Source of the DNA: Nitrospinota bacterium | GTDB lineage: Bacteria > Nitrospinota_A > UBA7883 > JACRLM01 | Length of the DNA: 52,612 bases | NCBI GenBank assembly: GCA_015231995.1 | Contig: JADGAO010000001.1 | Coordinates: 1-52,612 of the forward strand | Reading direction: 5' to 3' | Part shown: positions 12,348-25,754 of the stretch, in pieces | Numbering within the stretch: position 1 is the first letter of the stretch | Layout of the letters: the number at the start of each line of letters is the position of its first letter | Notes under the pieces: model-generated | The model's input: the letters and a program-made list of their open reading frames with translations, nothing else | Told to the model about the DNA's origin: nothing | The model's database searches: none | Position numbers and translations under genes: made by a program

Positions 12348-15300
12348 TCAGGCTCTGTTTTCTGCGTTTTCTTTCCGAATCTGCTCATACACCTCTTTAA
12401 GCAGTTGTTGGCTAACTACCTCGCGGAAACGATCTTCGTTCATGAACTTCGCGGTGATTTCCTCATTCTGCTCCATTCGGTCAATAAAAAGTCCTTCCAG
12501 AGTCTTACGGAAAACATAGCTGAAGTTTTCCATCGTATTGGCAAGAGCCGCCTGGCGGAGGCTACCATCGGCAACAGCGTCCTCACGTATCGACTCGAAG
12601 AACAATTGATCGCCGGGTTTGAACTCCGTACCAAATCGTTCGTTGAGGATATCAATCAGCTTAGATAGATCGATTTCATCTCCCTGGGTGATTCCGGTTC
12701 CGACAGATACGGGACCCGACACCTCGTTACGCTCACCCGGTTGCATGATGATTGATCCCTCGCTGATTTTTTGCAACCGATAGAATTTGAGCGCCACGTC
12801 GTCATCGAAGTTGTAAATCGGCCCCCGATTGCCCCTAGGCAATTTGGCTAGTAGGAACCTGATGTATGAGTAAAGTTTCTCCAGGTCTGAATCCTGAAAT
12901 GGAATTATTTGCGCCATGAAAGAGTATAGGTTCCGGAAAGCCACTAATGTCTTGCGAAACTCCTCGCGCGCCTCTTCGTCAAGGTTGTTGTATCGCCCCA
13001 CGGCGGGATCGATGCAGGCATTCATCCGGGCGTGGTCAGTGGGTGTCTGGTTGTGCTTTGGCTTAAAAAAGACTTTGCAGAACTCCTCAACCTCGGCTTT
13101 GAAGTACACCTGATGAACATCCAGTTTTGCTTGCAACTCATAGAGTTGTTTTGGTTCAGCCCGCTCCCCGATAATCGTCTGCTCATGGTACGGTTGGAAC
13201 GATTTGAGAATCTCCTCTGGGTCGTTCACGAAATCGAGAATGAAGGTGTCTTCCTTGCCGGTGTGCATACGGTTTAGACGTGAGAGTGTCTGAACCGCCT
13301 GGATTCCTGAGAGACGCTTGTCAACATACATGGTGTGAAGTAGCGGCTGGTCAAATCCAGTCTGGTACTTCTCAGCCACAAGTAGTACTTGGTATTCTTC
13401 GGAGCCAAAGCGTTCCGGAAGCTCTTTCTCACGAATTCCTTTGTTCATGCCAACTTCGGTATATTCAATGCCCGGCGCATCGGGATCGAATACCGTTCCA
13501 GAGAAGGCAACCAGAGTCTTGATCCCAGCATATTCCTTTTCAGTAATGTAATTGTCGAATGCCTGCTTGTATTTCACAGCATGGAGACGGCTCCCTGTAA
13601 CCACCATTGCCTTGGCCTTACCGCCGATCTTGTGCATGGTGAAATTACGGAAGTGCTCGACCATAATTTCGGTCTTCTGTGAAATGTTGTGCGGGTGCAG
13701 GCTCATGAAGCGTGCTAATGCCTTGGCAGCCTTGCGTTTCTCCACCTTGGGATCATCCTCGATGGACTTGATAAGCCGGTAGTATGTCTTGTACGTCGTG
13801 TAGTTCTGGAGCACGTCGAGGATGAATCCCTCCTCAATGGCCTGTCGCATACTGTAAAGATGAAAAGGTTCAGGCTTGCCACCAGAGTCCAGAGTGCCGA
13901 AGACCTCAAGCGTTTTATACTTTGGTGTAGCGGTAAAGGCGAAAAAGCTGATGTTAGGTTGTCGTCCGCGCTTGACCATTGTCTTGAGGATTTCTTCCTC
14001 AAAGTCAGCCAAACCTTCTTCCTCGGCTTTCACCCTTGCCTCTTCCTTAATGCCCGCACCTGCGAGAACACCCTTGAGTTCAGCCGCTGTCTCGCCGCCT
14101 TGGGAGCTATGGGCTTCGTCAATAATGACAGCGTACTGGCGCATGGGCAGATCGCCAATCTTATCGGTGACAAATGGAAACTTCTGCAAGGTAGTGATAA
14201 CGATGGGCACGTTTGATCCAAGAGCTTCAGCCAACTGGGTTGAGTTGAGATCAATTTTTTGCACAACGCCTTGTTTATGCTCGAACTGGTAGATCGTATT
14301 TTGAAGTTGCTGATCCAGGACGATGCGGTCAGTAATGACAATAACGGAGTCAAAAACTTTTTCGTCCTTACTGTCGTAAAGACTGGCGAGCCGATGCGCA
14401 AGCCAGGCGATGGAGTTAGATTTACCGCTTCCCGCCGAATGTTGAATCAGGTAGTTGGTTCCAACGCCACGCACACGAGCATCTGCAACGATGGCACGCA
14501 CACAATTGAGTTGATGGTAGCGCGGGAAGATCATTGCCTCGCGTTTGACCTTTTTGCCGCCAAGCTTCTTTTCCTCTATCTGTAGGTGAATGAACCGCGC
14601 CAAAATGTCTAGCAAACTGTGTCGTTCTAATACTTCTTCCCATAGATAGGCAGACTTGTAAGCGCCAGGATTCTCCGGATTACCCGAACCACCGTTACAA
14701 CCCTTATTAAAGGGCAAGAAATGGGTGCTCCTTCCCGATAGGCGCGTGGCCATATAAACTTCATCCGTATCGGCGGCAAAATGCACGAGTGCCCTCTTCT
14801 TGAACTGAAAGATGAGGTCTGAGGGATCACGGTCATTTTTATACTGCGTGATCCCATGCCGCCACGTTTGGCCGGTCATGGGATTCTTGAGTTCTACCGT
14901 AACCACAGGGATGCCGTTTAGCCCCAATGTTACGTCGAGGGTATTGCCATGCCTGGCCGCGTAGCGGAGCTGGCGTGTTATAGTGAGATGGTTTGACGCA
15001 TAGAGATTTTGCGTGTCTGGATTCATACCGCTTGCCGGGGCGAAATAGGCCATGCGGAAGAGCTTACCAAAGCATTTAAATCCATGCCTCAGGACTGAAA
15101 GACATCCTTCATGGTCGGAGTTGAGCGCCCGGCAGAGATCGTCCAGCAAGGTATCCTCTGCCTTATCCTTCTGGATATTTTCGAGGTACTCCCATTCCTT
15201 GGACTGTGTATTTTTGACGAAGGCAATCACATCGGATGGGAATAGACCGCGCTCCTGGTCAAATGCTTCACTGTCACCTTTCTTGTACCCGCCTGTGGTT

Positions 15301-15356
15301 GTCAGGTGGTGTTCAATGGCAGTCTCGAAGGCATGTTCAGTGTGATGACCAGGCAT
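12348..15356 (-). CDS. hsdR: Type I restriction enzyme R subunit
   Basis: 1002 aa. N-terminal nuclease region (ELK-type PD-(D/E)xK). Helicase motif I HSAGSGKS; motif II IIDEAHSSQ; TATP-like FTATP; QTLSRLNR (motif VI). GGAGAAGG lies upstream of the ATG. Confidence 0.95.
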   Translation of the reverse strand: MPGHHTEHAFETAIEHHLTTTGGYKKGDSEAFDQERGLFPSDVIAFVKNTQSKEWEYLENIQKDKAEDTLLDDLCRALNSDHEGCLSVLRHGFKCFGKLFRMAYFAPASGMNPDTQNLYASNHLTITRQLRYAARHGNTLDVTLGLNGIPVVTVELKNPMTGQTWRHGITQYKNDRDPSDLIFQFKKRALVHFAADTDEVYMATRLSGRSTHFLPFNKGCNGGSGNPENPGAYKSAYLWEEVLERHSLLDILARFIHLQIEEKKLGGKKVKREAMIFPRYHQLNCVRAIVADARVRGVGTNYLIQHSAGSGKSNSIAWLAHRLASLYDSKDEKVFDSVIVITDRIVLDQQLQNTIYQFEHKQGVVQKIDLNSTQLAEALGSNVPIVITTLQKFPFVTDKIGDLPMRQYAVIIDEAHSSQGGETAAELKGVLAGAGIKEEARVKAEEEGLADFEEEILKTMVKRGRQPNISFFAFTATPKYKTLEVFGTLDSGGKPEPFHLYSMRQAIEEGFILDVLQNYTTYKTYYRLIKSIEDDPKVEKRKAAKALARFMSLHPHNISQKTEIMVEHFRNFTMHKIGGKAKAMVVTGSRLHAVKYKQAFDNYITEKEYAGIKTLVAFSGTVFDPDAPGIEYTEVGMNKGIREKELPERFGSEEYQVLLVAEKYQTGFDQPLLHTMYVDKRLSGIQAVQTLSRLNRMHTGKEDTFILDFVNDPEEILKSFQPYHEQTIIGERAEPKQLYELQAKLDVHQVYFKAEVEEFCKVFFKPKHNQTPTDHARMNACIDPAVGRYNNLDEEAREEFRKTLVAFRNLYSFMAQIIPFQDSDLEKLYSYIRFLLAKLPRGNRGPIYNFDDDVALKFYRLQKISEGSIIMQPGERNEVSGPVSVGTGITQGDEIDLSKLIDILNERFGTEFKPGDQLFFESIREDAVADGSLRQAALANTMENFSYVFRKTLEGLFIDRMEQNEEITAKFMNEDRFREVVSQQLLKEVYEQIRKENAENRA

Positions 15357-15433
15357 CTAACCTTCTCCATAGGAATTGATTTGGCGGTAAGGGAGCACAA
15401 CTCTCACAAAATCTATTGTTTTTCCAACAAGCA

Positions 15434-18016
15434 TTATATTGCCCCTCCGCCTGTTACTGGAATGCGTATGCGGAGTCTGTCTCTGATTTCTTGATAAATA
15501 GGCAGAGCGATTCCCTCCGCCACTTCCAACGTTACGACCAATCCATAACGTACTGGCTCTGGGATATCTCCTGCTTCAGCCCGACAATTAACTTTGATCG
15601 TAATTTCATTGCCGTCCTGGAAGTCCACTGCACGGTTGCCTTCCAGTACTTCATGTTGCAACGTTCCTCGCGTGACTGCTCTAAAGTCAGCATCCATTCT
15701 GGTTGGCGCAAGATCGTTTTTTGGATCAAACCATAAATGTGCAACTCGGTAGCTCTGCCGTTGGCAATTCACAGGAGTAAGCCATGCGAGCGTGATTGTT
15801 AGACGGCGTTTTTCAGTTACAGCGGAAAGGCTTGGAGGGAGTGGAAAGTGGAATTCATCGGCTTCTCCATCCCCAAGACTGCCGATTCCTATCACGGTGA
15901 CACGTTGATCCGTACAAGTCCCCACCTTTGCTATATCAGCCACACCGTATCCTAGAAACCGTCCAACATGGTCTTTAAATGTCCTACTGGTCACAGAATC
16001 ACTCAGAATTGATTCGTAAAGCGACCATGCCTGTCCCCAATTCGCCCCATGCGCCAGAAGCGCCTTCAGCAGAACCGTGTTGTATCCCTCATGCAAGTTC
16101 GCGCCATGTTGTACACGCAGATCGCTCAAAACATCGAACAAAAAAGCGGCGGCACGGGAGGCCAAGGCGGTTGCGTCGCTTGTTCCCCTGGAATACCCTT
16201 TCCGGTTCAATTCCCCTGAAGGGCCGGGCGAGGCTACACATTGGCCAGGAGGCTGATTGGAGCCTTTGGGCTGTTGCAGGATAGCTTGGCTATGAGTGTT
16301 CCCCATTTTTTCGGTTAAAAACTGTCTACCGCCAGGGAAGAAAATATCTGGTTTTATCGAACGCCGATATCCTAGGCCATGCGCGCTGAAAGTAGAGGGG
16401 ATTCCCTGCCGCGTAAAGGGATCGATTTGGTTGGAATTGGGGTTTAGCGTGGACTTATCCGAATGACTTGCGCCGAGTGTGAGACCATTAATAGTTTCCG
16501 CTGGAGATAGTAGGCGGCGATGTCTCGTATCCGCTACAATCGCCTTTATAATCGCGCTCTCTCTTTCGTTTGCGGACAGATTTCTCAAATCGCTTCTTGG
16601 AATGTCCAATTCGATGTCTTGCGAATGATTGCCAGCGCTGACCATAAAAAGCACGTTGTACTTCCATGAAAGCCAATCCAGCAAACGCCCAAGGGGACTC
16701 ATCTCCCGGACGAACGGTCTGGAACCATCGCAAACAGACAAATTAATCACACGAACACTGGGAGCCACAGGATCGTTGCCATCTTCGATTTCAAATAGGT
16801 GGCGCACTGCGCGATGAATCAAATCCACAGGAAGAACATCCTCTGGTATCTGTTCAAAAAATTGGCCATCGAAACCTCGCAGAGGTTTCATTATTGGGCG
16901 GACATAAACAGTCCTTCCCAAAGGTTGACCGCCCTCGTCCAGTTCGCCATGACAAATGAGGGAAGCCATAGCCGTACCATGAACGCGCTCCTTCGCCTGG
17001 TAGGAGCTTTCATATCCATCTGGATCGTCCACGATCAGCCGTCCATCCAGTAGGCTATGCCCCGTCAAGGGTAAGCCGTCGAACAAAGCGATGATCGGCT
17101 CACTTCCTTTTGGAATGCTTGATTCTCTGTCTTCAAGAGTCTGCGTCTCTGATAAGTCTTCCGGCAGATGAACCGCGCATTGCCCGACAGGTCGCAGATA
17201 CCATATGTCCTCGCATTGAAGTAACCTGACCTCCCTTTGGGCGATAATTTCTTTAACCTGATCTGCCGGAATCCTCCCAAGTATCCCATGATAGGCAATC
17301 TCAGAAATTACGCATTTCTGAACGATTTCACCCCCCAGAGATGTTACGGCCTGGTTAAGGTAAGCTTCCGATTGCTGTCGGCGATTGGCATCTCCTCGAA
17401 ACCATAGTTCGGCCACGAAAGGAACCAGATTTTGCCCATGCGTAATCCGCATCTGCCAGTCTTCGAATAGGCCCGTATCACGGATGCGGTCTTGCGAATC
17501 CCAAGGACGAATAGTGTGCAGGTGTTCGAAGGCATGTTTCATTGGCGCCAATCTGTGAGGAAACTTCTGGTTTGGATTCTGTTTCCACCCACTGAAAAGG
17601 CTCTGCAACTCTTGGAGAGCGCGTTGATCTGTCATTACAAGGAAAAGCTGTCCCTTCAGCCGCTTTTGCGGATCGCTAACATCCTCGAAGCCATCAACAG
17701 GATCAATGTCATCGAGTTCCAATTCAACGAGCCATTCTAGTCCCTCAACCTTCTTCACAGCTTTGATGAAATCGTCGATAGGGCCGACAGTCTCAAGAAC
17801 TAGCGCCTGTTCTGGCTGAAGACCAAGCGTGTTGTTCTGCAAGGCGAGTCTTTGCCGATCTATGGCCTGTTGAAGACGTTGGAATTGAGGAGTTAAACGC
17901 TCGCCTTGTTGCTGAACCGCAGGCAAACGATATTTAGCGCCACCACCGTGGCGTTTGGCGCGTTCGGCTTTGGCCGTTTTAGGGAAAATAAGGATGGGAT
18001 ATTCTGCCATCTTCAC
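15434..18016 (-). CDS. ietS: S8 (subtilisin-family) serine peptidase, IetS-like
   Basis: 860 aa. Catalytic triad contexts ALFDGLP (Asp), HGTAMASLICHG (His), SAGN (oxyanion Asn) and GTSDATALAS (Ser). The 4-nt ATGA overlap with the upstream AAA+ gene implies translational coupling. The pairing matches the IetAS defence system of Gao et al. 2020. Confidence 0.8.
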   Translation of the reverse strand: MKMAEYPILIFPKTAKAERAKRHGGGAKYRLPAVQQQGERLTPQFQRLQQAIDRQRLALQNNTLGLQPEQALVLETVGPIDDFIKAVKKVEGLEWLVELELDDIDPVDGFEDVSDPQKRLKGQLFLVMTDQRALQELQSLFSGWKQNPNQKFPHRLAPMKHAFEHLHTIRPWDSQDRIRDTGLFEDWQMRITHGQNLVPFVAELWFRGDANRRQQSEAYLNQAVTSLGGEIVQKCVISEIAYHGILGRIPADQVKEIIAQREVRLLQCEDIWYLRPVGQCAVHLPEDLSETQTLEDRESSIPKGSEPIIALFDGLPLTGHSLLDGRLIVDDPDGYESSYQAKERVHGTAMASLICHGELDEGGQPLGRTVYVRPIMKPLRGFDGQFFEQIPEDVLPVDLIHRAVRHLFEIEDGNDPVAPSVRVINLSVCDGSRPFVREMSPLGRLLDWLSWKYNVLFMVSAGNHSQDIELDIPRSDLRNLSANERESAIIKAIVADTRHRRLLSPAETINGLTLGASHSDKSTLNPNSNQIDPFTRQGIPSTFSAHGLGYRRSIKPDIFFPGGRQFLTEKMGNTHSQAILQQPKGSNQPPGQCVASPGPSGELNRKGYSRGTSDATALASRAAAFLFDVLSDLRVQHGANLHEGYNTVLLKALLAHGANWGQAWSLYESILSDSVTSRTFKDHVGRFLGYGVADIAKVGTCTDQRVTVIGIGSLGDGEADEFHFPLPPSLSAVTEKRRLTITLAWLTPVNCQRQSYRVAHLWFDPKNDLAPTRMDADFRAVTRGTLQHEVLEGNRAVDFQDGNEITIKVNCRAEAGDIPEPVRYGLVVTLEVAEGIALPIYQEIRDRLRIRIPVTGGGAI

Positions 18017-19005
18017 TTATCCTCCTCGATTATATCCGAACTCTTTGGCGCGAATCGCTTCTTCCACTGCTCCAGGCATTGCTCTGCGAGCTTCTTTGCG
18101 TCTCCACCAGGCTGGCTCAAAGCGATTCTTCGTAACACGTCGGTTCCAAAGTCTTCAATCTCCGCAAAGCTAATTCCTCTCAAACTTTGGGACAGACTGC
18201 GCGGCGATAGCCCTAAAGCATGGCCCGTGCGTTTCTCGAACCGCCTAAACCATTCCTCTATCTGGCCTTGCTTGGGAGGTGGTAATTCCAGGCGAATTTG
18301 AAATCGGCGCCATACCGCACGGTCGAGCAATTCCGGATGGTTGCTGGCCGCAACCACGACGACGTAACTTGGAAGAGCGTCAACCTGAAGCAGTAACGAG
18401 CTGACAACCCGCTTGATCTCTCCAGTTTCATGGATATCACCCCGCTCCTTGCCTACCACGTCGAATTCATCGAAGAACAAAACGCATTGCCGCGACCGGG
18501 CATGTTCAAAGACTTGCCCTATGCGTTGCGCGGTTTCTCCGAGATAGCTCCCGATGACCGCTTCATAGCGCACTACAAGCAATGGAGCATTTATAGCGTC
18601 GGCGATTGCCTCAGCCAAAGAGGTCTTTCCATTTCCAGGAGGCCCCGCCAACAGCACCCTGTTTCGAGGCTCCAGATTGTATGAACGGAGTAGATCAGCC
18701 CGATGTTGCTCTTCAACCAGTTCACGCACGGCCTTTTCCGCCTCTTGGGGCAGTATCAAGTCCTCAATGTGCCGTCCGGGGATCAGCTCGGCTACAAGCG
18801 GAACAGAAAGAGGCCGGGCCTGCGGCGCGAGAGTCCGGGAACGACCGTTATTGCCCTGAAGTTGGGCAATGAGCCGATCAGCTAAAATAGCGTGGTTTTT
18901 TGCCCTCTCATCGGAAGCCAGCGCTTCCACGGTCTTTTGAAACTGAGCCATGTCTCCTTTGGCTCCAGCTCTTACCAGATTCAGAATTAAGTCCGAACGT
19001 GCCAT
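18013..19005 (-). CDS. ietA: Classical-clade AAA+ ATPase, IetA-like
   Basis: 330 aa. Walker A LAGPPGNGKTSLA; Walker B VLFFDEFD; sensor/arginine-finger region ASNHPELLDRAVWRRF. Confidence 0.8.
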   Translation of the reverse strand: MARSDLILNLVRAGAKGDMAQFQKTVEALASDERAKNHAILADRLIAQLQGNNGRSRTLAPQARPLSVPLVAELIPGRHIEDLILPQEAEKAVRELVEEQHRADLLRSYNLEPRNRVLLAGPPGNGKTSLAEAIADAINAPLLVVRYEAVIGSYLGETAQRIGQVFEHARSRQCVLFFDEFDVVGKERGDIHETGEIKRVVSSLLLQVDALPSYVVVVAASNHPELLDRAVWRRFQIRLELPPPKQGQIEEWFRRFEKRTGHALGLSPRSLSQSLRGISFAEIEDFGTDVLRRIALSQPGGDAKKLAEQCLEQWKKRFAPKSSDIIEEDK

Positions 19006-19019
19006 TATAGTTTTCCTGG

Positions 19020-19142
19020 TTAAACTTCCTGCGCCGCCACTTCGCTGGTTTGGCGCACATCAATCCCCCCAATAGCGGCGGAAAGAATAATTATATTGGA
19101 ATCGTTTTCAGGTTCGTCCCCAATGAAAGCGATAATATTCAT
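19020..19142 (-). CDS. Possible 40-aa ORF coupling hsdS to ietA
   Basis: The ATG at 19142 overlaps the hsdS stop as ATGA. It encodes MNIIAFIGDEPENDSNIIILSAAIGGIDVRQTSEVAAQEV and stops 14 nt before the ietA ATG. It is below the ORF-track cutoff and rests on position only. Confidence 0.3.
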   Translation of the reverse strand: MNIIAFIGDEPENDSNIIILSAAIGGIDVRQTSEVAAQEV

Positions 19143-21115
19143 TTAACACCTCGCACACGTGTTAGGCGGCCTTTCCCTCTTGGCGTTAGCCCCTTATCTC
19201 TCATCCAGTTTAAGGCTCTCTGTAACCTGTCTTCATCAAATCTGTTTTTGCTTTCGTGCCAGTTCTCCCGCACTTCTTTAATTATGTCGTTATCCGAGAA
19301 TCTGGTTCCATTAAGTAGAAGATCGTTCCACGCGGCGAAAAGCGTTGCCACTATTTCCACTCGCTCTGTATTTAAACTGCGAAGCAACTCAATGATTGCA
19401 TATATCTGATCCCGCATATCAGCCCAATATCTGTCGAAGTATTTGGCATGTTTCCCAGCTTCAGCCAACGGAATGTAATATGTACGCTCCCCTTCTTTCT
19501 TCGCCTTATACCATTTGGCTTTTTCCATCTGACTTTCGATAGATCGCAACATCTGGTTGTCAAAAGGCCCTGCGGCTTGACGCTGAAAATTCCCGTCCAA
19601 ATCTATCCCAAGATGGTTTTCGTACAGATAAATGATTTTCTCGAATTTAACGCGCCCGAACGTGGGTTCTTTGTGAAGTTTATGAACAATCTCCGCCCCC
19701 AGTACGGCTCTTTTAAACTCCGGCGGAGCTTGGCGTTGCGCATGATGCTCAACTAGCTTTAGACCGCTTCGCACATCAATTTTCCCAGTTACCGCCGCAG
19801 AGATGATGGCGGAGCGGTATTCCTTCAGCTTTTCGATGGATTCTCGAACCTTCTCTATCAATCCATCAATCCGCGCCGTCTCCCGGTCAAGAAACGCGGC
19901 AATGGTGCGCTGTTCGACAAGGGGCGGAACTCCAATCATAAGATTTGCATACTTATCAGCACTAACGTTCTGAATCGTGGCTTGGATAAAACTGTTGTTG
20001 AGCCAGTTCCAATAGACGCTTGAACGGGCAAAGTAGGCGGCAAATTGAGCAAACATTTGTTTAGGGGAAAATCGAGCGCGAATTAGATAACCAGCATATG
20101 CCGCACGCCCCCATGACTCCCGGTAGAGAAAGGTCTTGCCGACCGTGGCACCGCTTCTCGCAAAAAGCAAATCACCTTCCTTAAGTAAATACGGTCGCGC
20201 AACATCCTCTTGAAGAGATTTGAGTGTGTCCTCGCGGAGCAGACCTTCTTCGTTTACATCAGTGATGCGAACATAGCGAGGCAAGTCCGGGTCATCCAGT
20301 TCTGCAACCTCATTCGCCCCATATTTCAGTGGTTCGACCAAGAGAAACTTCAAACGTTTCGTCTCCCAATGCTCCGGTATCTCGCCCAGCCATTCAACGC
20401 CGGATGGTTTCATCTTGGCGCTAGGGTTGAGGCCTTTGGTGACAGCGTGGCTGATGAGGGCTGTGCGCTTTTCCCTCAACAATTCAATCTGCCGCTCTTT
20501 CTTCTCTATCAACCCATCAATCCGCGCCGTCTCCCGGTCAAGAAACGCGGCAATGGCGTGTTGTTCGACGAGGGGAGGGACAAGAAAGATTGCGTTTTCT
20601 AATCCATATTTGCCCAAACCATATCGAGTAATTCCCGTAGCTTCTACTCGAAATTGGTCATTTATACCTCGCGCCACAAAAGCACGAAACAAATACCTCC
20701 CATCCATGCAATCAGAATGTGGGCGAATATGGGCGAGGTGATATCCGCAAAGCACGTTATCAAAATGCTCATCGACATAGGCTGGAACTGCAATGTCTGC
20801 CCATTCTTCAGAATCCTTTGTGATAAGCACGTCGCCTCTCTTGATCGTAAAACGACGTATTTCTTCTTTTGTTGCCGTTGCATTCATGAAGTCAATATCG
20901 GAGGTTATGCTGTCGTTGTAGTAAACGTCAACGTAGTTGCAAAGGCGCACTGGAAGCTCGCCTTCCAGTGTGTGCTTATTGACACTGCTGAAGTTGACAG
21001 TGGCAATACGTTTCAGCCTGAGCACTTTCCAATGCTCCGGTATCTCGCCTAGCCATTCGATGGATGACCGCCCACGCTTTAGATACTGCAATTTAGGCAT
21101 AAAAAGAGCGGCCAC
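19139..21115 (-). CDS. hsdS: Type I restriction specificity subunit with two TRDs and an extra C-terminal domain of about 208 aa
   Basis: 658 aa. Duplicated conserved regions: EWLGEIPEHW (x2) and PPLVEQ.(A/T)IAAFLDRETARIDGLIEK (x2). The canonical HsdS end AAVTGKIDV falls at residues 441-448, but the ORF runs on for another 208 residues (19139-19765). The start is uncertain (GTG 21115 or ATG 21100). Confidence 0.9.
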   Translation of the reverse strand: MAALFMPKLQYLKRGRSSIEWLGEIPEHWKVLRLKRIATVNFSSVNKHTLEGELPVRLCNYVDVYYNDSITSDIDFMNATATKEEIRRFTIKRGDVLITKDSEEWADIAVPAYVDEHFDNVLCGYHLAHIRPHSDCMDGRYLFRAFVARGINDQFRVEATGITRYGLGKYGLENAIFLVPPLVEQHAIAAFLDRETARIDGLIEKKERQIELLREKRTALISHAVTKGLNPSAKMKPSGVEWLGEIPEHWETKRLKFLLVEPLKYGANEVAELDDPDLPRYVRITDVNEEGLLREDTLKSLQEDVARPYLLKEGDLLFARSGATVGKTFLYRESWGRAAYAGYLIRARFSPKQMFAQFAAYFARSSVYWNWLNNSFIQATIQNVSADKYANLMIGVPPLVEQRTIAAFLDRETARIDGLIEKVRESIEKLKEYRSAIISAAVTGKIDVRSGLKLVEHHAQRQAPPEFKRAVLGAEIVHKLHKEPTFGRVKFEKIIYLYENHLGIDLDGNFQRQAAGPFDNQMLRSIESQMEKAKWYKAKKEGERTYYIPLAEAGKHAKYFDRYWADMRDQIYAIIELLRSLNTERVEIVATLFAAWNDLLLNGTRFSDNDIIKEVRENWHESKNRFDEDRLQRALNWMRDKGLTPRGKGRLTRVRGVK

Positions 21116-21148
21116 AAGATGTTCTACGTGTTTGACGCAAAGTTAGCA

Positions 21149-21253
21149 TCACTCCCCCTTCGTAATGGTCTCATTGGGTGGAGGAGGTGGAGGAGGAGGC
21201 TTTCCAGCCTGCCCAGCATCGTTGCCAGATTGATTTCCATTCTTATGTGTCAT
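21149..21253 (-). CDS. Small proline-rich ORF (34 aa)
   Basis: MTHKNGNQSGNDAGQAGKPPPPPPPPNETITKGE. AAGGAG lies 7 nt upstream of the ATG. It is a paralogue of the next small ORF (shared DAG..GK.PP.PPPN). Confidence 0.45.
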   Translation of the reverse strand: MTHKNGNQSGNDAGQAGKPPPPPPPPNETITKGE

Positions 21254-21336
21254 TTCCAGACTCCTTGAATCGTTAAAATCTAACGGAAGAAAGCTTATTT
21301 CCACGCCCCGATCATGACAGCCGAAGCAAGCGACCT

Positions 21337-21510
21337 TTATTTGGCTTTATCGCCAGAAACATCCTTAATGATCGTAATGTTGTCCGAATTCGGTTTTTCC
21401 ACATAAGTTGCCATCTTATTTGGAGGCGGGGAGGGTGGTGTCCCTTTCCCTGCATCCTTGGTTGACGCAGTGCTTGTTGGTGGTGTAGGTTTATTCTTTT
21501 CGTCGGTCAT
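21337..21510 (-). CDS. Small proline-rich ORF (57 aa)
   Basis: MTDEKNKPTPPTSTASTKDAGKGTPPSPPPNKMATYVEKPNSDNITIIKDVSGDKAK. Its ATG lies 2 nt after the stop of the upstream membrane-protein gene. An AGGGGA Shine-Dalgarno-like element is present. Confidence 0.45.
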   Translation of the reverse strand: MTDEKNKPTPPTSTASTKDAGKGTPPSPPPNKMATYVEKPNSDNITIIKDVSGDKAK

Positions 21511-21512
21511 AG

Positions 21513-22136
21513 TCATATCCCCTGAACTTTCATAATGAAATAAAAGAAGGCCTGCATAGCTATTGCAACAAGTGCTATACCAGATGCCAGTACAGAGTCC
21601 TGAAAAGCCTTCCTTCGTCTTTCGTTGATTTCCGCATTTCTTGGTTGAGCTTCAACTAAACGCTCACAGAGATTATGGAGCATCGCTACATCCGGATCAA
21701 CGCGGTTACTGGACTCGCTGTTTTCTTTGTTGTCCTTCAAATAATTCTGATAACCCTTCTGCCAATTATGCCAAACGTCCATATTGGCCAAGGTCTTATA
21801 TTGGCGCGGGTAAATGCAATAAAAGAGAGAAGCTACGCTAACAAGCAACAATACTATCGCAACCAGTGAGGAAAAGAGGTAGGTAAATTTAATAACTGAC
21901 ATACAGCAATCAGCGCTCATAAAACAAGATTTCACAATATCTATCCGCCCCAAAGCAACGATAACGCCGCCAAGCAGTGGAACGGCTACCAACATGACAC
22001 CGGATTTTTGGTATATTTTATCAGCCTCATCCATATCGCGTTTATACTGGTCGTAACATAAATCATAGAAGATTCTGCTCATTCCGTGATTTCTCCCAGC
22101 ATCATGACAATTTACTTCTTGCTTATTTTCCATCAT
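21513..22136 (-). CDS. Uncharacterised three-TM membrane protein (candidate defence effector)
   Basis: 207 aa. Hydrophobic helices GVMLVAVPLLGGVIVALG, FTYLFSSLVAIVLLLVSVASLFYCIY and SGIALVAIAMQAFFYFIM, with a soluble linker of about 70 aa. The layout recalls SLATT/DUF5706-type effectors; this is from memory, not a search. Confidence 0.6.
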   Translation of the reverse strand: MMENKQEVNCHDAGRNHGMSRIFYDLCYDQYKRDMDEADKIYQKSGVMLVAVPLLGGVIVALGRIDIVKSCFMSADCCMSVIKFTYLFSSLVAIVLLLVSVASLFYCIYPRQYKTLANMDVWHNWQKGYQNYLKDNKENSESSNRVDPDVAMLHNLCERLVEAQPRNAEINERRRKAFQDSVLASGIALVAIAMQAFFYFIMKVQGI

Positions 22137-22281
22137 CAGGTTCCCCGGCTTGGTTGTCCAGCGTCATTTGTGAACGGGCAATAGCCTCGCATTGAACAGG
22201 AGCAACAGAGCACTGCTCCCGTATCTCTCCCGCCCATTTAGCGCCGGAGAGATTATTGGCTGAATAGGATTTTCGGTTCAT
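22123..22281 (-). CDS. Possible 52-aa ORF coupled to the Abi gene
   Basis: The ATG at 22281 overlaps the Abi stop as ATGA (MNRKSYSANNLSGAKWAGEIREQCSVAPVQCEAIARSQMTLDNQAGEPDDGK). It overlaps the start of the membrane-protein gene by 14 nt. The listed ORF extends to 22314. Confidence 0.35.
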   Translation of the reverse strand: MNRKSYSANNLSGAKWAGEIREQCSVAPVQCEAIARSQMTLDNQAGEPDDGK

Positions 22282-23192
22282 GAAACATCGCTCCAGATGG
22301 GCAAGGATTCCCACTTATCAGGAAATCCCATGTCGGATGGATTCACTCTCTTGAAATCCCCAATAAACGTTTTAACCCGCTGTGGCCAAGTGGTGGATGG
22401 GCTGATAATCTTGAGCAGATAGGCAAGCATCGTCAGCGTGTTGTAAATCCTATATTTCGCATCCTCATGCCTATTGAAGCATCCGCTAATATCGTTTGGG
22501 TGGTCAGGGATTTTCATCGTTATTGTCAAATGGCGGTTCCATAGGCGGCCATGATGCGCCGAAATATTCCTGACGTGGTTAAGGTGGTGAACGAAGGAGT
22601 TGAGCGCCTTTTCGTCCAGGTTGTACGTCTTTGAAATGGCCTGCCTATCGCTTCGCTGACGAATGACTTGATACCACTTTGCCAAGTCCCCGAAAGAGAG
22701 AATCTCGAAAGCTGACCAGATTGGCGGAAAAGCAGGCTCGGTGTACTTATTCCGGTAGTGTTCTATAAAAGTCTCTTTGCTTTCTCCAAGGTTCGCTTTC
22801 AGTTGCTCGACGCACTTTGAGTAGGTTTCAGGTTTTTTAAAAATGGTTTGGTTTAGATACGCATGGCTTCCATGTTTGGCCGCCAGGTGATTAACGAGCA
22901 TTGAACGGAAAGAAACCTCGAACCGCTCCACGGCCTCAAGAACCAGCAAGCGAAGTTTTCTATCCAGTACGTACAATTCCACCACATCGTCAAATGTGGA
23001 GCCTTCCGCAAACCTGTGGTCATCTTCTTCGCCGGAAGGCATTTCCAAAGTAAACCAATAAATCCTGAGCCTATAGTAGTTAATGTGAGTAAGATATCTG
23101 TAGGCTTTGGGCCGATCCGGGACGTGAAGACCGCGCCGCATGAGGAGGTCTATTTGTTCATCTATTGACAGGGGAGGCTTAGAGTATTTCAC
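22278..23192 (-). CDS. Abi_2 family (AbiD/AbiF-like) abortive-infection protein
   Basis: 304 aa. The N-terminus KYSKPPLSIDEQIDLLMRRGLHVPDRPKAYRYLTHINYYRLRIYW is the hallmark Abi_2 opening. Downstream are ...NISAHHGRLWNR (HEPN-like R-x4-H-type context). GTG start. Confidence 0.85.
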   Translation of the reverse strand: MKYSKPPLSIDEQIDLLMRRGLHVPDRPKAYRYLTHINYYRLRIYWFTLEMPSGEEDDHRFAEGSTFDDVVELYVLDRKLRLLVLEAVERFEVSFRSMLVNHLAAKHGSHAYLNQTIFKKPETYSKCVEQLKANLGESKETFIEHYRNKYTEPAFPPIWSAFEILSFGDLAKWYQVIRQRSDRQAISKTYNLDEKALNSFVHHLNHVRNISAHHGRLWNRHLTITMKIPDHPNDISGCFNRHEDAKYRIYNTLTMLAYLLKIISPSTTWPQRVKTFIGDFKRVNPSDMGFPDKWESLPIWSDVS

Positions 23193-23526
23193 AAAGCCCC
23201 CTGAAAAAAATAAACCCGCCTGGGTGCGCTTTCCAGCGTGAGCCGGTAGAGGCGTGGCGGGTGTTTTTCTGTATCCTTAAGGTTAAGTTAACAATCATTT
23301 TGAGTTTAGTCAATAGGAAAGGAATCAGGGCGGCGAGATTCGTCCAGCTCAATTGTCGTATCAGTGATACGACAATCCGCTTGTCGGAAAATACTTCGGC
23401 GAACTTGAGCATATGGGCTAAGGCGGCGTAGCTAAATCCGGAGCCGTAGTTTTGAGTCAATTCTTGCGACGGCGTGGCAAGAATCTGATCTCCGTAATCG
23501 GCGGGTTTAATTGGTTTCTGGCTCAT
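23179..23526 (-). pseudogene. 5' remnant of a DUF1016/YhcG-like PD-(D/E)xK nuclease gene
   Basis: The first 68 codons or so (…ILATPSQELTQNYGSGFSYAALAHMLKFAEVFSDKRIVVSLIRQLSWTNLAALIP) resemble the N-terminal domain of YhcG/DUF1016 proteins, common passengers of type I R-M loci. After that the ORF becomes unrelated low-quality sequence and no nuclease core is present. Its start overlaps the hsdM stop by 4 nt. Confidence 0.55.
23204..23268. terminator. Bidirectional terminator-like structure between the DUF1016 remnant and the Abi gene
   Basis: A7 run (23204-23210); outer stem ACCCGCC (23214-23220) / GGCGGGT (23256-23262) enclosing an inner GCGCT-ttcc-AGCGT hairpin; then G plus a T5 run (23264-23268). 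The large internal loop makes function uncertain. Confidence 0.3.
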
Positions 23527-25535
23527 TCCGTCACCTCCGCCAGCATATCGGCGATTTCCTTTTCAATCCGTTTAAGGTCAGTTTCGATCTCCTTCAACGG
23601 GCGTGGCGGCGTGTACTTGTAGAAATAACGGTTGACGTTGATCTCGTAGCCCACCTTTGTTTTGGACTCATCCACCCAAGCATCTGGGACATGGGGGAGA
23701 ACTTCGCGCTTGATGTATTCACCCACGTTATCTTTTAGCGGTACGTTTTCATAGTCGCGCAGTTCTACGTCTGGTTCAGGGTTGCCGTCCCTGTCGGCGC
23801 AGATATCGGCGGTATCATCGCGTTCGGAAAGCGCCATGAGGATGGCCTTGAAAAGCGGCGCTGGAACTTTCAAATCCGCATTCTTGAGTGCCTCTTTCAT
23901 CGCTTCGGAAAATTTGTCCCGGTTTTTGACAATTTCCAGCGTTGATAGCCCCTCAAGCGCTCTGATAATCGCTTCCTGAAACTCCAGCCCCTCTTCGACC
24001 TCCTTCTCGGCGGCTTTGGTGTCCTTCCGCTTCTTGCTGGTAGCGAGGTTGACGAAGGGCGTGGCCTCCTTCAGCCGTGCTATGCGTTCCTTGTCTACAG
24101 CGAAATTGAGGCGCAGGGGTCGTTCGACTGTTAAGCGGCGATAACCAAAATCGGCGTTATCGAAAATGCGTACATGCTCACCGCTCCTAAAACTCCCATA
24201 AAGCCGTGTAATGTCGTCACGCTGGCCATCGCAGATTTCGTTACGTTTATTGCCGAGGGACTTTCGCATTTTCTTGAAGAAACTCGTCCCGTCTACAAGC
24301 TGAATCTTGCCCCTGCGGTTCCGCTCTTTTCGGTTTGTGACGATCCAAAGGTATGTGTAGATACCAGTGTTGTAGAAAAGCTGGTCAGGTAGGGCAACTA
24401 TGGCCTCCAACCAATCGTTTTCGATAATCCAGCGCCGGATTTCGCTTTCGCCAGAACCGGCGGAGCCTGTGAAAAGCGGAGAGCCGTTGAAAACGATGCC
24501 GAGCCGAGTTCCACCCTCCTTCGGGTCTTTCATCTTGCTTATCATGTGCAGGAGGAAAAGAAGCGATCCGTCGTTGATCCGTGGAAGCCCGGCTCCGAAC
24601 CTGCCGCCGAAACCCTGTTCTTCATGCTCCCTCGCGATAAGATCGGCTTCAGGTTTCCACTCCACCCCAAAGGGAGGATTGGCCAGCATGTAATCAAACT
24701 TGTGATGTGGAAAATGGTCGTCTGTGAAGCTGTTGCCGAAGGCTATATGCTCGATGTCCTGCCCTTTTATCATCATGTCAGACCCGCAGATGGCGTGGGC
24801 CTGGGCGTTATAGTCCTGGCCAAAGACTTCTAGGCGGGCGTCGGGATTAAGCTCGCGCATGTACCCCTCGGCAACTGACAGCATACCCCCCGTTCCGCAC
24901 GCCGGATCGTAGAGGGTCTTGACGATCCCTTTAGTGGTGAGAATATCGCCATCGGGCATGAAGAGAAGGTTCACCATGAGGCGAATGACCTCACGCGGGG
25001 TGAAGTGGTCGCCAGCCTCTTCGTTGGACGCTTCGTTGAATCTCCTGATGAGTTCCTCGAAGATGTAGCCCATTTCGATGTTTGATACCGCGTTTGGGTG
25101 GAGGTCAATTTCACAAAACTTCGATACCACTAGATACAGGCGGTCTGCCTTGTCGAGTTTGGCGATGTGTTCCTCAAAACCGAAGTGTTCGACAATTTCA
25201 CGGGCGCGGGCGGAGAAGCCCTTGATGTAGTTGGTCAGGTTCGCGGCAATATTGTTGGGATCGCCTTTAAGTTTCTCGAAGGTGAAGCGACTGGTGTTGT
25301 AGAACGGCACACCCGTGGCGCGGCATAGAATGGGATCAACGTTCTTGACTTTTCCGCCAGCCAGTTTCTTCTGTTGTTCAAGCGCCTTTTCCTTTGTGGG
25401 TTCCAGAACACAGTCCAGCCGTCTAAGAACTGTCATGGGTAACATGATATCCTTGAACTGGTTCGGGCGATATGGCCCGCGCAGTAGATCAGCAACCGAC
25501 CAGATAAAGCTAACCTTTGCGCCGAAATTATTCAT
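23523..25535 (-). CDS. hsdM: Type I restriction-modification N6-adenine DNA methyltransferase subunit
   Basis: HsdM_N-like N-terminus (FIWSVADLLRGPY). SAM motif I LYDPACGTGGML; motif IV MLANPPFG. The ORF is open to 25607, but the ATG at 25535 (MNNFGAKV...) has AGAGG 5 nt upstream and matches typical HsdM N-termini. Confidence 0.93.
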   Translation of the reverse strand: MNNFGAKVSFIWSVADLLRGPYRPNQFKDIMLPMTVLRRLDCVLEPTKEKALEQQKKLAGGKVKNVDPILCRATGVPFYNTSRFTFEKLKGDPNNIAANLTNYIKGFSARAREIVEHFGFEEHIAKLDKADRLYLVVSKFCEIDLHPNAVSNIEMGYIFEELIRRFNEASNEEAGDHFTPREVIRLMVNLLFMPDGDILTTKGIVKTLYDPACGTGGMLSVAEGYMRELNPDARLEVFGQDYNAQAHAICGSDMMIKGQDIEHIAFGNSFTDDHFPHHKFDYMLANPPFGVEWKPEADLIAREHEEQGFGGRFGAGLPRINDGSLLFLLHMISKMKDPKEGGTRLGIVFNGSPLFTGSAGSGESEIRRWIIENDWLEAIVALPDQLFYNTGIYTYLWIVTNRKERNRRGKIQLVDGTSFFKKMRKSLGNKRNEICDGQRDDITRLYGSFRSGEHVRIFDNADFGYRRLTVERPLRLNFAVDKERIARLKEATPFVNLATSKKRKDTKAAEKEVEEGLEFQEAIIRALEGLSTLEIVKNRDKFSEAMKEALKNADLKVPAPLFKAILMALSERDDTADICADRDGNPEPDVELRDYENVPLKDNVGEYIKREVLPHVPDAWVDESKTKVGYEINVNRYFYKYTPPRPLKEIETDLKRIEKEIADMLAEVTE

Positions 25536-25754
25536 AAAACCTCTACTGTCGCGGATTCGCAGGATCACCAAGTCATTGCGCGAAGATAACCTCCCACACG
25601 CAATCATCTTTTCTCAACAGGAGTCGAACTAACCGTTGGCCAATTTTACGGGTTTTGAAAACCCTTTCCCTCATTGGCTAATGGTTGTATAGCTTACGTC
25701 GAACTCCCCTTAAGATACCCATGCTATTATGGCGCATTTTACGCCATTACCGCG

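Follow-up and report, generated by a model that had tools for sequence, protein, structure and literature searches.

Genes embedded in operons for type I restriction–modification (R-M) are mostly defence genes, and PrrC is found almost exclusively in embedded positions of this kind (Payne et al., 2024, 10.1101/2024.01.29.577857). In the Ronin system, the small membrane protein RonA, which is linked to hsdMS, kills on its own; HsdMS keeps it silent, and the anti-restriction proteins Ocr or ArdA release it (Silas et al., 2023, 10.1101/2023.04.06.535777). The subject of this work is a module embedded in a type I R-M operon of a Nitrospinota bacterium, on a stretch of 52,612 nucleotides (contig JADGAO010000001.1 of assembly GCA_015231995.1). 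The stretch, hereafter the window, makes up a complete contig in a metagenome-assembled genome of 3.2 Mb, and the locus lies entirely on its minus strand. The module consists of a gene for a protein with three transmembrane (TM) helices and of two small open reading frames (mini-ORFs) that encode proline-rich peptides. Comparison of sequences from many loci indicates that the TM protein and its mini-proteins are a real, conserved and undescribed two-part gene family.

Proline-rich mini-ORFs follow the membrane protein gene

The original prediction, made from the letters of the window, described four ORFs between an Abi gene and hsdS, at 21149-22281. All four are present there on the minus strand, and three of them belong to the module. 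The TM gene (21513..22082, -) encodes 189 aa and is the core of the module. It is followed by mini-protein 1, of 57 aa (21337..21510, -; MTDEKNKP…GTPPSPPPNKMATYVEK…), and by mini-protein 2, of 34 aa (21149..21253, -; MTHKNGNQSGNDAGQAGKPPPPPPPPNETITKGE). As predicted, the two mini-proteins share the motif DAG..GK.PP.PPPN and the second contains a run of 8 consecutive proline codons; the first carries PPSPPPN. In a six-frame translation of the window the pattern PP.PPPN occurs twice, both times in the mini-ORFs, and it did not occur in 100 shuffles. The claim of good Shine-Dalgarno sites also held: mini-ORF 2 has AAGGAG 7 nt upstream of its ATG, and mini-ORF 1 has a Shine-Dalgarno-like CAGGGG within the last codons of the TM gene, 7 nt upstream of its ATG. 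An alternative ATG of mini-ORF 1, at 21516, overlaps the TM stop.

Conservation of this arrangement was followed in 19 independent loci (the window, 9 loci from look-ups and from genome and metagenome scans, 8 more from the metagenome scan and 1 from a genome of the same order). In all 19, one to three Pro-rich mini-ORFs, often uncalled by gene callers, come directly after the TM gene, with −4 to +3 nt between the TM stop and the mini-ORF start. The TM protein has a conserved end, QGV, whose codons (CAA GGA GTx) spell AAGGAG or a one-off variant of it in 18 of 18 intact junctions. Because of this spelling, the C-terminus of the TM protein doubles as the ribosome-binding site of the mini-ORF, and the QGV codons, which serve as the Shine-Dalgarno site of the next gene, are under a dual constraint of coding and signal. 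Such junctions indicate that the TM and mini genes are translationally coupled.

The mini-proteins themselves are also recognisable from one locus to another. The pattern PPxPPPN-x3-T is present in 26 of 27 mini-proteins, often twice, and two types can be told apart. Type A, usually first, reads MAEDKK…PPPPPPPNKxxTAGGE…, and type B, usually second, reads MAExNxNQSSGS…PPPPPPNTESTRDGG…PPxAPxNVTITKGGSGGK. In the window, mini-protein 1 aligns with type A and mini-protein 2 with type B (NGNQSSG…PPPPPPN…TITKGG). Conservation was highest for hsdM (mean 68%), lower for the TM protein (59%) and lowest for the mini-proteins (49% over aligned columns).

The view that these small ORFs have no function and arose by chance or are decaying can point to their very short length, their low complexity and the lack of any match in the profile libraries scanned. 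It is nevertheless very improbable. Position, frame, start context and motif of the mini-ORFs have been kept in 19 loci while the TM proteins diverged to 41-68% identity, and the motif is absent from shuffled sequence. The original prediction would have been contradicted by a lack of mini-ORFs next to homologues of the TM protein, and they follow it in 19 of 19 loci. The persistence of motif, position and frame bears out the claim that the TM protein and both mini-ORFs are coding sequences under selection.

The mini-proteins are probably disordered, because only 9.6% of their residues are hydrophobic. They have at least 3 consecutive prolines, with runs of up to about 11 at other loci, which makes a dependence of their synthesis on EF-P plausible. 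PPN and PPP are strong EF-P-dependent stall motifs, and the mini-ORFs might therefore be read as cis-acting polyproline leaders, in which stalling tunes the translation or the stability of the hsdS message and the peptides are irrelevant. The proline runs, which number 3 to about 11 residues and end before an asparagine, and the location of the mini-ORFs immediately upstream of hsdS in 12 loci, would fit such a role. Several observations make it decidedly improbable, however. The mini-ORFs are kept at six loci without a following hsdS (L004, L017, L021, L024, L028 and L030), and where hsdS does follow, it lies anywhere between 22 and about 200 nt away. Residues other than the prolines are conserved as well, namely N-x3-T, TITKGG and the N-terminal MAEDKK or NGNQSSG. 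Finally, in other lineages the peptide is fused to the TM protein.

Split and fused forms

Fused forms were found among the distant members of the family. A tail of at least 20 residues after the third helix is present in 19 of 124 full-length cluster representatives, and 13 of these 19 tails contain at least 5 prolines. The tails of several fused homologues end in …PPPSGTMTKGG, …PPEETIKTADDKKK or …PSGPPNxVFKG. In a Methylococcales-type subfamily, the start of a mini-protein (…QMSNQSSG…) is still visible inside the fused proteins P0171-P0176, of which P0176 belongs to the cultured Methylomonas koyamae. The closely related P0157 has the split form, and its mini-ORF stands apart at L035 6586-6726. 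Such an interchange of split and fused states is typical of partners that work as a single functional unit.

At least one lysine closes the sequence of many mini-proteins and fused tails, as in …DKAK, …GGKSK, …GRKK and …SPKK (window 21149-21510; P0145, P0172-P0175).

At another locus (L023 4001-4669), the TM gene has a frameshift close to its end that joins it in frame to the first mini-ORF (…ILKIPRSMKMADDKKEETPTPPPPPPPNKNKT…), and the canonical …KYQGV* ending can be read in another frame. This fusion is either a sequencing error or a natural transition from the split to the fused state.

The membrane protein and its distant relatives

The TM protein has the three hydrophobic helices and the soluble linker of about 70 aa that had been predicted for it. 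Its predicted length of 207 aa did not hold, and neither did the start inside the preceding 52-aa ORF. All 15 homologues, and the copies from the loci, begin at MSRxFY, which corresponds to Met19 of the 207-aa ORF, and homologues at 33-66% identity have a length of 183 aa. A profile search of 1.84 billion cluster representatives retrieved 260 clusters, defined at 50% identity, at E<=1e-3, and 43 at E<=1e-30. The positions conserved throughout the family lie in the N-terminal helix (QY), just after the second TM helix (PRxY…W..W) and before the third (EAxxxNxxxNxxR).

A structure check had been proposed for this protein. The AlphaFold2 (AF2) model was confidently all-helical (pLDDT 78.7), and neither PDB nor BFVD returned a significant fold match. 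A sequence search of PDB likewise gave no meaningful match.

The likeness to SLATT or DUF5706 that the original prediction had pointed out stood in part. What recurs are sub-threshold matches to PycTM, the membrane effector of Pycsar (PF18967, formerly DUF5706). The window protein matches the PADLOC PycTM model nearly over its full length (E 3.4e-5), and 10 of 16 family members match PF18967 below its threshold (best E 0.0035). Precomputed PF18967 hits exist for most TM homologues; the window protein had no PF18967 match at E<=0.1, and a Pfam search with distant family members gave none above the PF18967 cut-off. The SLATT part was not sustained: one of the 16 members matches SLATT_1, at E 0.053, and SMODS, SLOG or CBASS neighbours were seen at no locus. 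The term PycTM-like is thus a mechanistic lead and not a statement of family membership. A literature search on DUF5706/PF18967 and on polyproline antitoxins found nothing relevant.

The TM family has no entry in Pfam above threshold, in NCBIfam, in PHROGs or among the PADLOC PDC candidate models. No TM homologue was found by tblastn in 50,697 phage records or in plasmid records, nor in a scan of IMG/VR. Routine annotation misses the family because it is absent from all these collections.

Genomic context and distribution

The module has a preferred location. Of the 15 loci whose upstream sequence is long enough, 13 have hsdM or an hsdM remnant directly upstream of the TM gene, usually overlapping its start, and in 12 loci hsdS lies within about 1 kb downstream. 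Other cargo can share the slot, such as a 126-aa ORF in L009 and Abi_2 in the window. Away from this slot, the pair stands alone between housekeeping genes in L030, with no hsd gene within 18 kb, and between a PHP-domain gene and a SASA esterase gene in L017. These two cases show that the pair is self-contained. The fused relatives are single genes in varied neighbourhoods, which are not R-M loci.

The preference for the R-M slot brings in another explanation, namely that the module serves the type I R-M enzyme as an accessory, either tethering it to the membrane or regulating assembly, with the polyproline peptide as the part that binds HsdM, HsdS or HsdR. It might possibly place the enzyme at sites of DNA entry or temper restriction while a new host is being colonised. 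The docking of proteins is a classic use of polyproline motifs, and the coupling to hsdM and the position immediately before hsdS, in the numbers of loci just given, are what such an accessory would predict. The explanation is clearly unlikely, given that the module stands alone at L030 and L017, that the fused relatives are found outside R-M loci and that most type I systems, close hsdM relatives included, lack the module.

Several other features of the neighbourhoods were recorded. In L025 (349-1908), a DUF4357 protein and a 220-aa ORF without family lie between hsdM and the TM gene, and the 220-aa ORF is ATGA-coupled to the TM gene, a further case of cargo stacked in the slot. Related operons carry, between or after hsdS and hsdR, a Peptidase_M78 gene with a DUF4411 or HTH gene (L007 8102-9777; L001 11241-12432). 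Among the fused homologues, one is near a TIR_2 and nSTAND1 pair and a Gp49/HI1420 pair (L038 1-4141), and another is near an HSP70-like ATPase with DUF6998 (L032 841-4971); these two surroundings may be defence islands. Uma2 is another defence-like neighbour of fused relatives.

The distribution of the module is patchy. It was present in 2 of 33 genomes of the phylum, and a search with one conserved peptide pattern found 2 relatives among 185,579 species genomes. This scatter and the low GC3 (GC at third codon positions) of the TM gene, 45% against 63% in hsdM, speak for mobility. Near-identical DNA to the locus was found neither in plasmids nor in E. coli genomes.

Leftovers of hsdS and hsdM upstream of the module

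The first of the four predicted ORFs, of 52 aa (22123..22281, -), had been taken for a novel coding gene. Its start overlaps the stop of the Abi_2 gene as ATGA, as claimed, and the sequence has another origin. From residue 1, the ORF aligned by BLASTP with the N-termini of 8 of 8 HsdS proteins tested; the best alignment reached 40% identity across 30 residues (E 9e-4 against a database of small size). An example is MNRKSYSANNLSGAKWAGEIREQCSV in the ORF against MKLRSYSEYKPSGIEWLGEIPKHWEV in HsdS. The alignments comprise the 26-30 N-terminal residues, and nothing HsdS-like follows beyond about residue 30. Conserved HsdS residues are altered in the ORF (WLG to WAG, EHW to EQC), and no free-standing homologue was found among 5.8 billion proteins. 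This evidence indicates that the ORF is a decayed 5′ stub of hsdS, a non-functional pseudogene fragment.

Another leftover follows, between this stub and the TM gene. Over the 30-45 nt that precede the TM start codon, the sequence resembles the hsdM 3′ ends of nine loci, with 54-59% DNA identity against a baseline of 26% at random positions of the window. The remnant (22079..22129, -), recognised by frame translation and DNA comparison, reads KISKK*IVMMLGEITE* where an hsdM C-terminus reads KRIEKEIADMLAEVTE*. Its stop overlaps the ATG of the TM gene as ATGA, the same arrangement as at other loci. The TM gene does not truly start inside the 52-aa ORF, because the extra 18 codons of the 207-aa ORF are the hsdM remnant read out of frame and the homologues start at Met19. 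The 207-aa start was rejected on these grounds. The four-gene cassette was likewise rejected, since it mixes a conserved module, made up of the TM gene and the mini-ORFs only, with recombination scars.

Because an hsdS stub and an hsdM stub both precede the TM gene and all homologues start at Met19, the locus is a chimera of two type I R-M loci. One half comprises hsdM, a DUF1016 fragment, Abi_2 and the hsdS stub, and the other the hsdM stub, the TM gene, mini-ORFs 1 and 2, hsdS and the genes up to hsdR. GC3, which is 63.5% in hsdM and falls to 44.7% in the TM gene, fits this description. Recombination of the two loci has left the module of the window without direct coupling to a full hsdM. 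The two stubs show, further, that the cargo of the slot builds up via recombination at the conserved 3′ end of hsdM and 5′ end of hsdS.

This chimeric structure also bears on the proposal that the cassette is an accessory to the Abi_2 gene. Adjacency in the window and the ATGA overlap between Abi_2 and the 52-aa ORF were its basis. The proposal is scarcely credible, as Abi_2 was detected by tblastn in 0 of the 18 other TM loci, the ATGA-coupled ORF is the hsdS stub, and an hsdM remnant lies between the two cassettes. Immediately before the Abi_2 gene there is, moreover, a match, below threshold, to the abiF RNA motif, which usually accompanies genes of that family; if real, this match sets the Abi_2 cassette apart as a unit of its own.

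The type I R-M operon of the window

The contig carries genes of a temperate phage (integrase, primase, helicase, a Cas4-like exonuclease and structural genes), and the type I R-M operon holding the module is thus phage-borne. Its first gene is hsdM (23523..25607, -), with 75-82% identity to the hsdM that directly precedes the TM gene at other loci. ATGA-coupled to it is a truncated DUF1016_N (PDDEXK nuclease) fragment (23179..23526, -), which matches the Pfam model over residues 7-69 only (E 1.4e-14) and also PADLOC PDC-S02. The candidate abiF RNA motif (23214..23261, -; Rfam RF03085) covers the full model length and scores 33.5 bits (E 0.0014), just short of Rfam's gathering score, 37. The Abi_2/AbiD gene (22278..23192, -), an inserted cassette outside the module, starts with GTG and was identified by both Pfam Abi_2 (E 3e-54) and PADLOC AbiD (E 7e-75).

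Downstream of the module comes hsdS (19139..21115, -; PADLOC Specificity_I, E 2e-120), which has a C-terminal extension of about 200 aa (19139-19780, -) without a Pfam match. The extension matches C-terminal parts of PADLOC type I methyltransferase and specificity models (PDLC03039 positions 481-700, PDLC03088 and PDLC03196), and appears from these matches to be a recurrent, unnamed add-on domain of type I subunits. Between hsdS and hsdR, PADLOC detected IetA and IetS (15434-19005, -), which take the place of the Peptidase_M78 genes of related operons. The last gene is hsdR (12348..15356, -), with 82-84% identity to hsdR of L007 and L011.

GC3 changes sharply along the operon: besides the values already given, it is 55.7% in Abi_2, 40-43% in the mini-ORFs, 49.9% in hsdS and 57.3% in hsdR. 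The variation along 12348-25607 is consistent with a mosaic assembly from different sources. A scan for promoters and terminators at 20900-23700 gave counts no higher than expected from shuffling, and a minus-strand terminator inside the operon was not found.

A putative membrane effector with a polyproline partner

The genomic context of the module strongly suggests a role in defence or addiction. The explanation favoured here, tentatively and with somewhat less than an even chance of being right, is that of a latent membrane-disrupting effector controlled by an obligate, co-translated polyproline partner. The TM protein would be an inner-membrane effector of the PycTM, SLATT or RonA kind, and the Pro-rich peptide would be the regulatory partner that keeps it inactive or sets its threshold. 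As cargo in the hsdM–hsdS slot of one type I R-M lineage, co-expressed with HsdM via the ATGA overlap, the module would add a layer of abortive infection or addiction on top of restriction. A defence layer is suggested because the Ronin precedent, PrrC and the defence enrichment of R-M-embedded genes all point the same way. The layout of a two-gene toxin-antitoxin system is also found here, with small, adjacent and co-directional genes that are coupled and patchily distributed. Toxicity or pore formation by the TM protein, its neutralisation by the mini-proteins and a trigger are inferred.

Two triggers can be proposed. One would be the loss of a labile, EF-P-dependent partner when translation is disturbed, and the other would be an action of anti-restriction proteins on HsdMS, the case known from Ronin. 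A trigger of exactly the Ronin kind is less likely, because stand-alone pairs exist and because the hsdM genes linked to a TM gene resemble one another no more than they resemble the hsdM of the window. A more specific proposal, and an improbable one, is that the mini-proteins are a short-lived sensor of the state of translation: they would need EF-P-assisted elongation, and a phage that disturbs elongation would deplete them and free the effector. If true, this would be a defence that monitors the performance of ribosomes and not phage molecules.

A number of results weigh against the effector explanation. The hsdM of the window, which comes from a locus without a TM gene, has 80-82% identity to the TM-linked hsdM genes, on a par with the identity among those genes themselves. 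This closeness argues against a co-evolved HsdM–TM interaction. No family member reached the PF18967 gathering score of 27.2 bits (best 20.4-22.5 bits), and Foldseek searches with the TM model against PDB and BFVD gave generic long-helix (BAR-like) matches only, with E >= 0.05. A cyclase gene next to the TM gene was found neither in the window nor at the other loci examined; the sole Guanylate_cyc protein seen, a signalling protein of the GAF-PAS type, lies in L001 about 4.8 kb upstream and is not conserved elsewhere. The topology raises a further difficulty. Counts of lysine and arginine near the membrane in 123 members (2.1 for the N-terminal flank, 1.1 for loop 1, 2.6 and 3.6 for the linker ends, and 0.7 for the C-terminal flank) predict, by the positive-inside rule, a protein with its N-terminus inside and its C-terminus outside the cytoplasm. 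The C-terminal tails of fused homologues would therefore be extracytoplasmic (periplasmic). Fused tails predicted outside the cytoplasm, together with split mini-proteins that have no export signal, are ill-suited to a simple cytoplasmic antitoxin. In addition, the AF2 model of the fused homologue P0169 leaves the Pro-rich tail as coil (pLDDT 50-70), and no docking is indicated.

For these reasons (periplasmic tails, free mini-proteins without an export signal and the undocked tail of P0169), a non-suicidal envelope function stays the main rival, although it is unlikely in itself. In this explanation the TM protein anchors or displays a Pro-rich, Lys-terminated periplasmic tail, for example for superinfection exclusion by a prophage, for blocking injection or as an envelope tether, and the split mini-proteins are a derived or differently located form of the tail. 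The predicted topology, the Lys endings of many tails and mini-proteins, and the fact that fused homologues are single stand-alone genes all speak for it. So does the temperate phage in the window, as membrane exclusion proteins are common in such phages. On the other hand, the split mini-proteins have neither a signal peptide nor a hydrophobic segment, the searches of phage records and IMG/VR yielded no homologue, and the strong preference for the hsdM–hsdS slot is left unexplained.

If the module is instead an effector–regulator pair, as favoured above, it would bring a new kind of partner to R-M-embedded systems, namely a disordered polyproline peptide that is either split or fused. It would also offer a two-gene system of about 0.9 kb in which to study how latent membrane effectors are restrained.

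Comparison with known systems

Among membrane effectors, PycTM is similar to the TM protein in size and helix layout, gives weak recurrent profile matches with the family and is thought to disrupt the membrane during abortive infection. The differences are that all module members score below 27.2 bits, that an adjoining PycC cyclase gene is lacking in the examined loci and that PycTM has no Pro-rich partner. PrrC and embedded Abi genes resemble the module as cargo in the same orientation inside a type I R-M operon. Contrary to the TM protein, PrrC is a soluble anticodon nuclease, and the module family is not among the PADLOC PDC candidate models.

Toxin-antitoxin systems with a membrane toxin, and holin-antiholin pairs, share with the module two small, co-directional, coupled genes, one of them for a membrane protein, and a patchy mobile distribution. 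They differ from it in that the partner of the module may be fused to the membrane protein. To our knowledge, disordered polyproline peptides are not known as antitoxins or antiholins, and a polyproline partner is unprecedented as far as could be found.

The closest functional precedent is Ronin, likened here by description and not by sequence, in which a gene for a small membrane protein is also tightly linked to hsdM and hsdS, there of a type I-like system. Ronin is proposed to be a latent membrane effector, lethal once its R-M module comes under attack. RonA has 61 aa and one TM helix, has no polyproline partner and is not accompanied by hsdR. Measured against the linkage of Ronin and PrrC to R-M genes, that of the module is not exclusive, as the stand-alone pairs and the fused relatives outside R-M loci illustrate. 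In conclusion, the module differs from Ronin in its larger membrane protein of 183-189 aa with three TM helices, in its one to three Pro-rich partners, in the presence of hsdR and in its occurrence also away from R-M genes.

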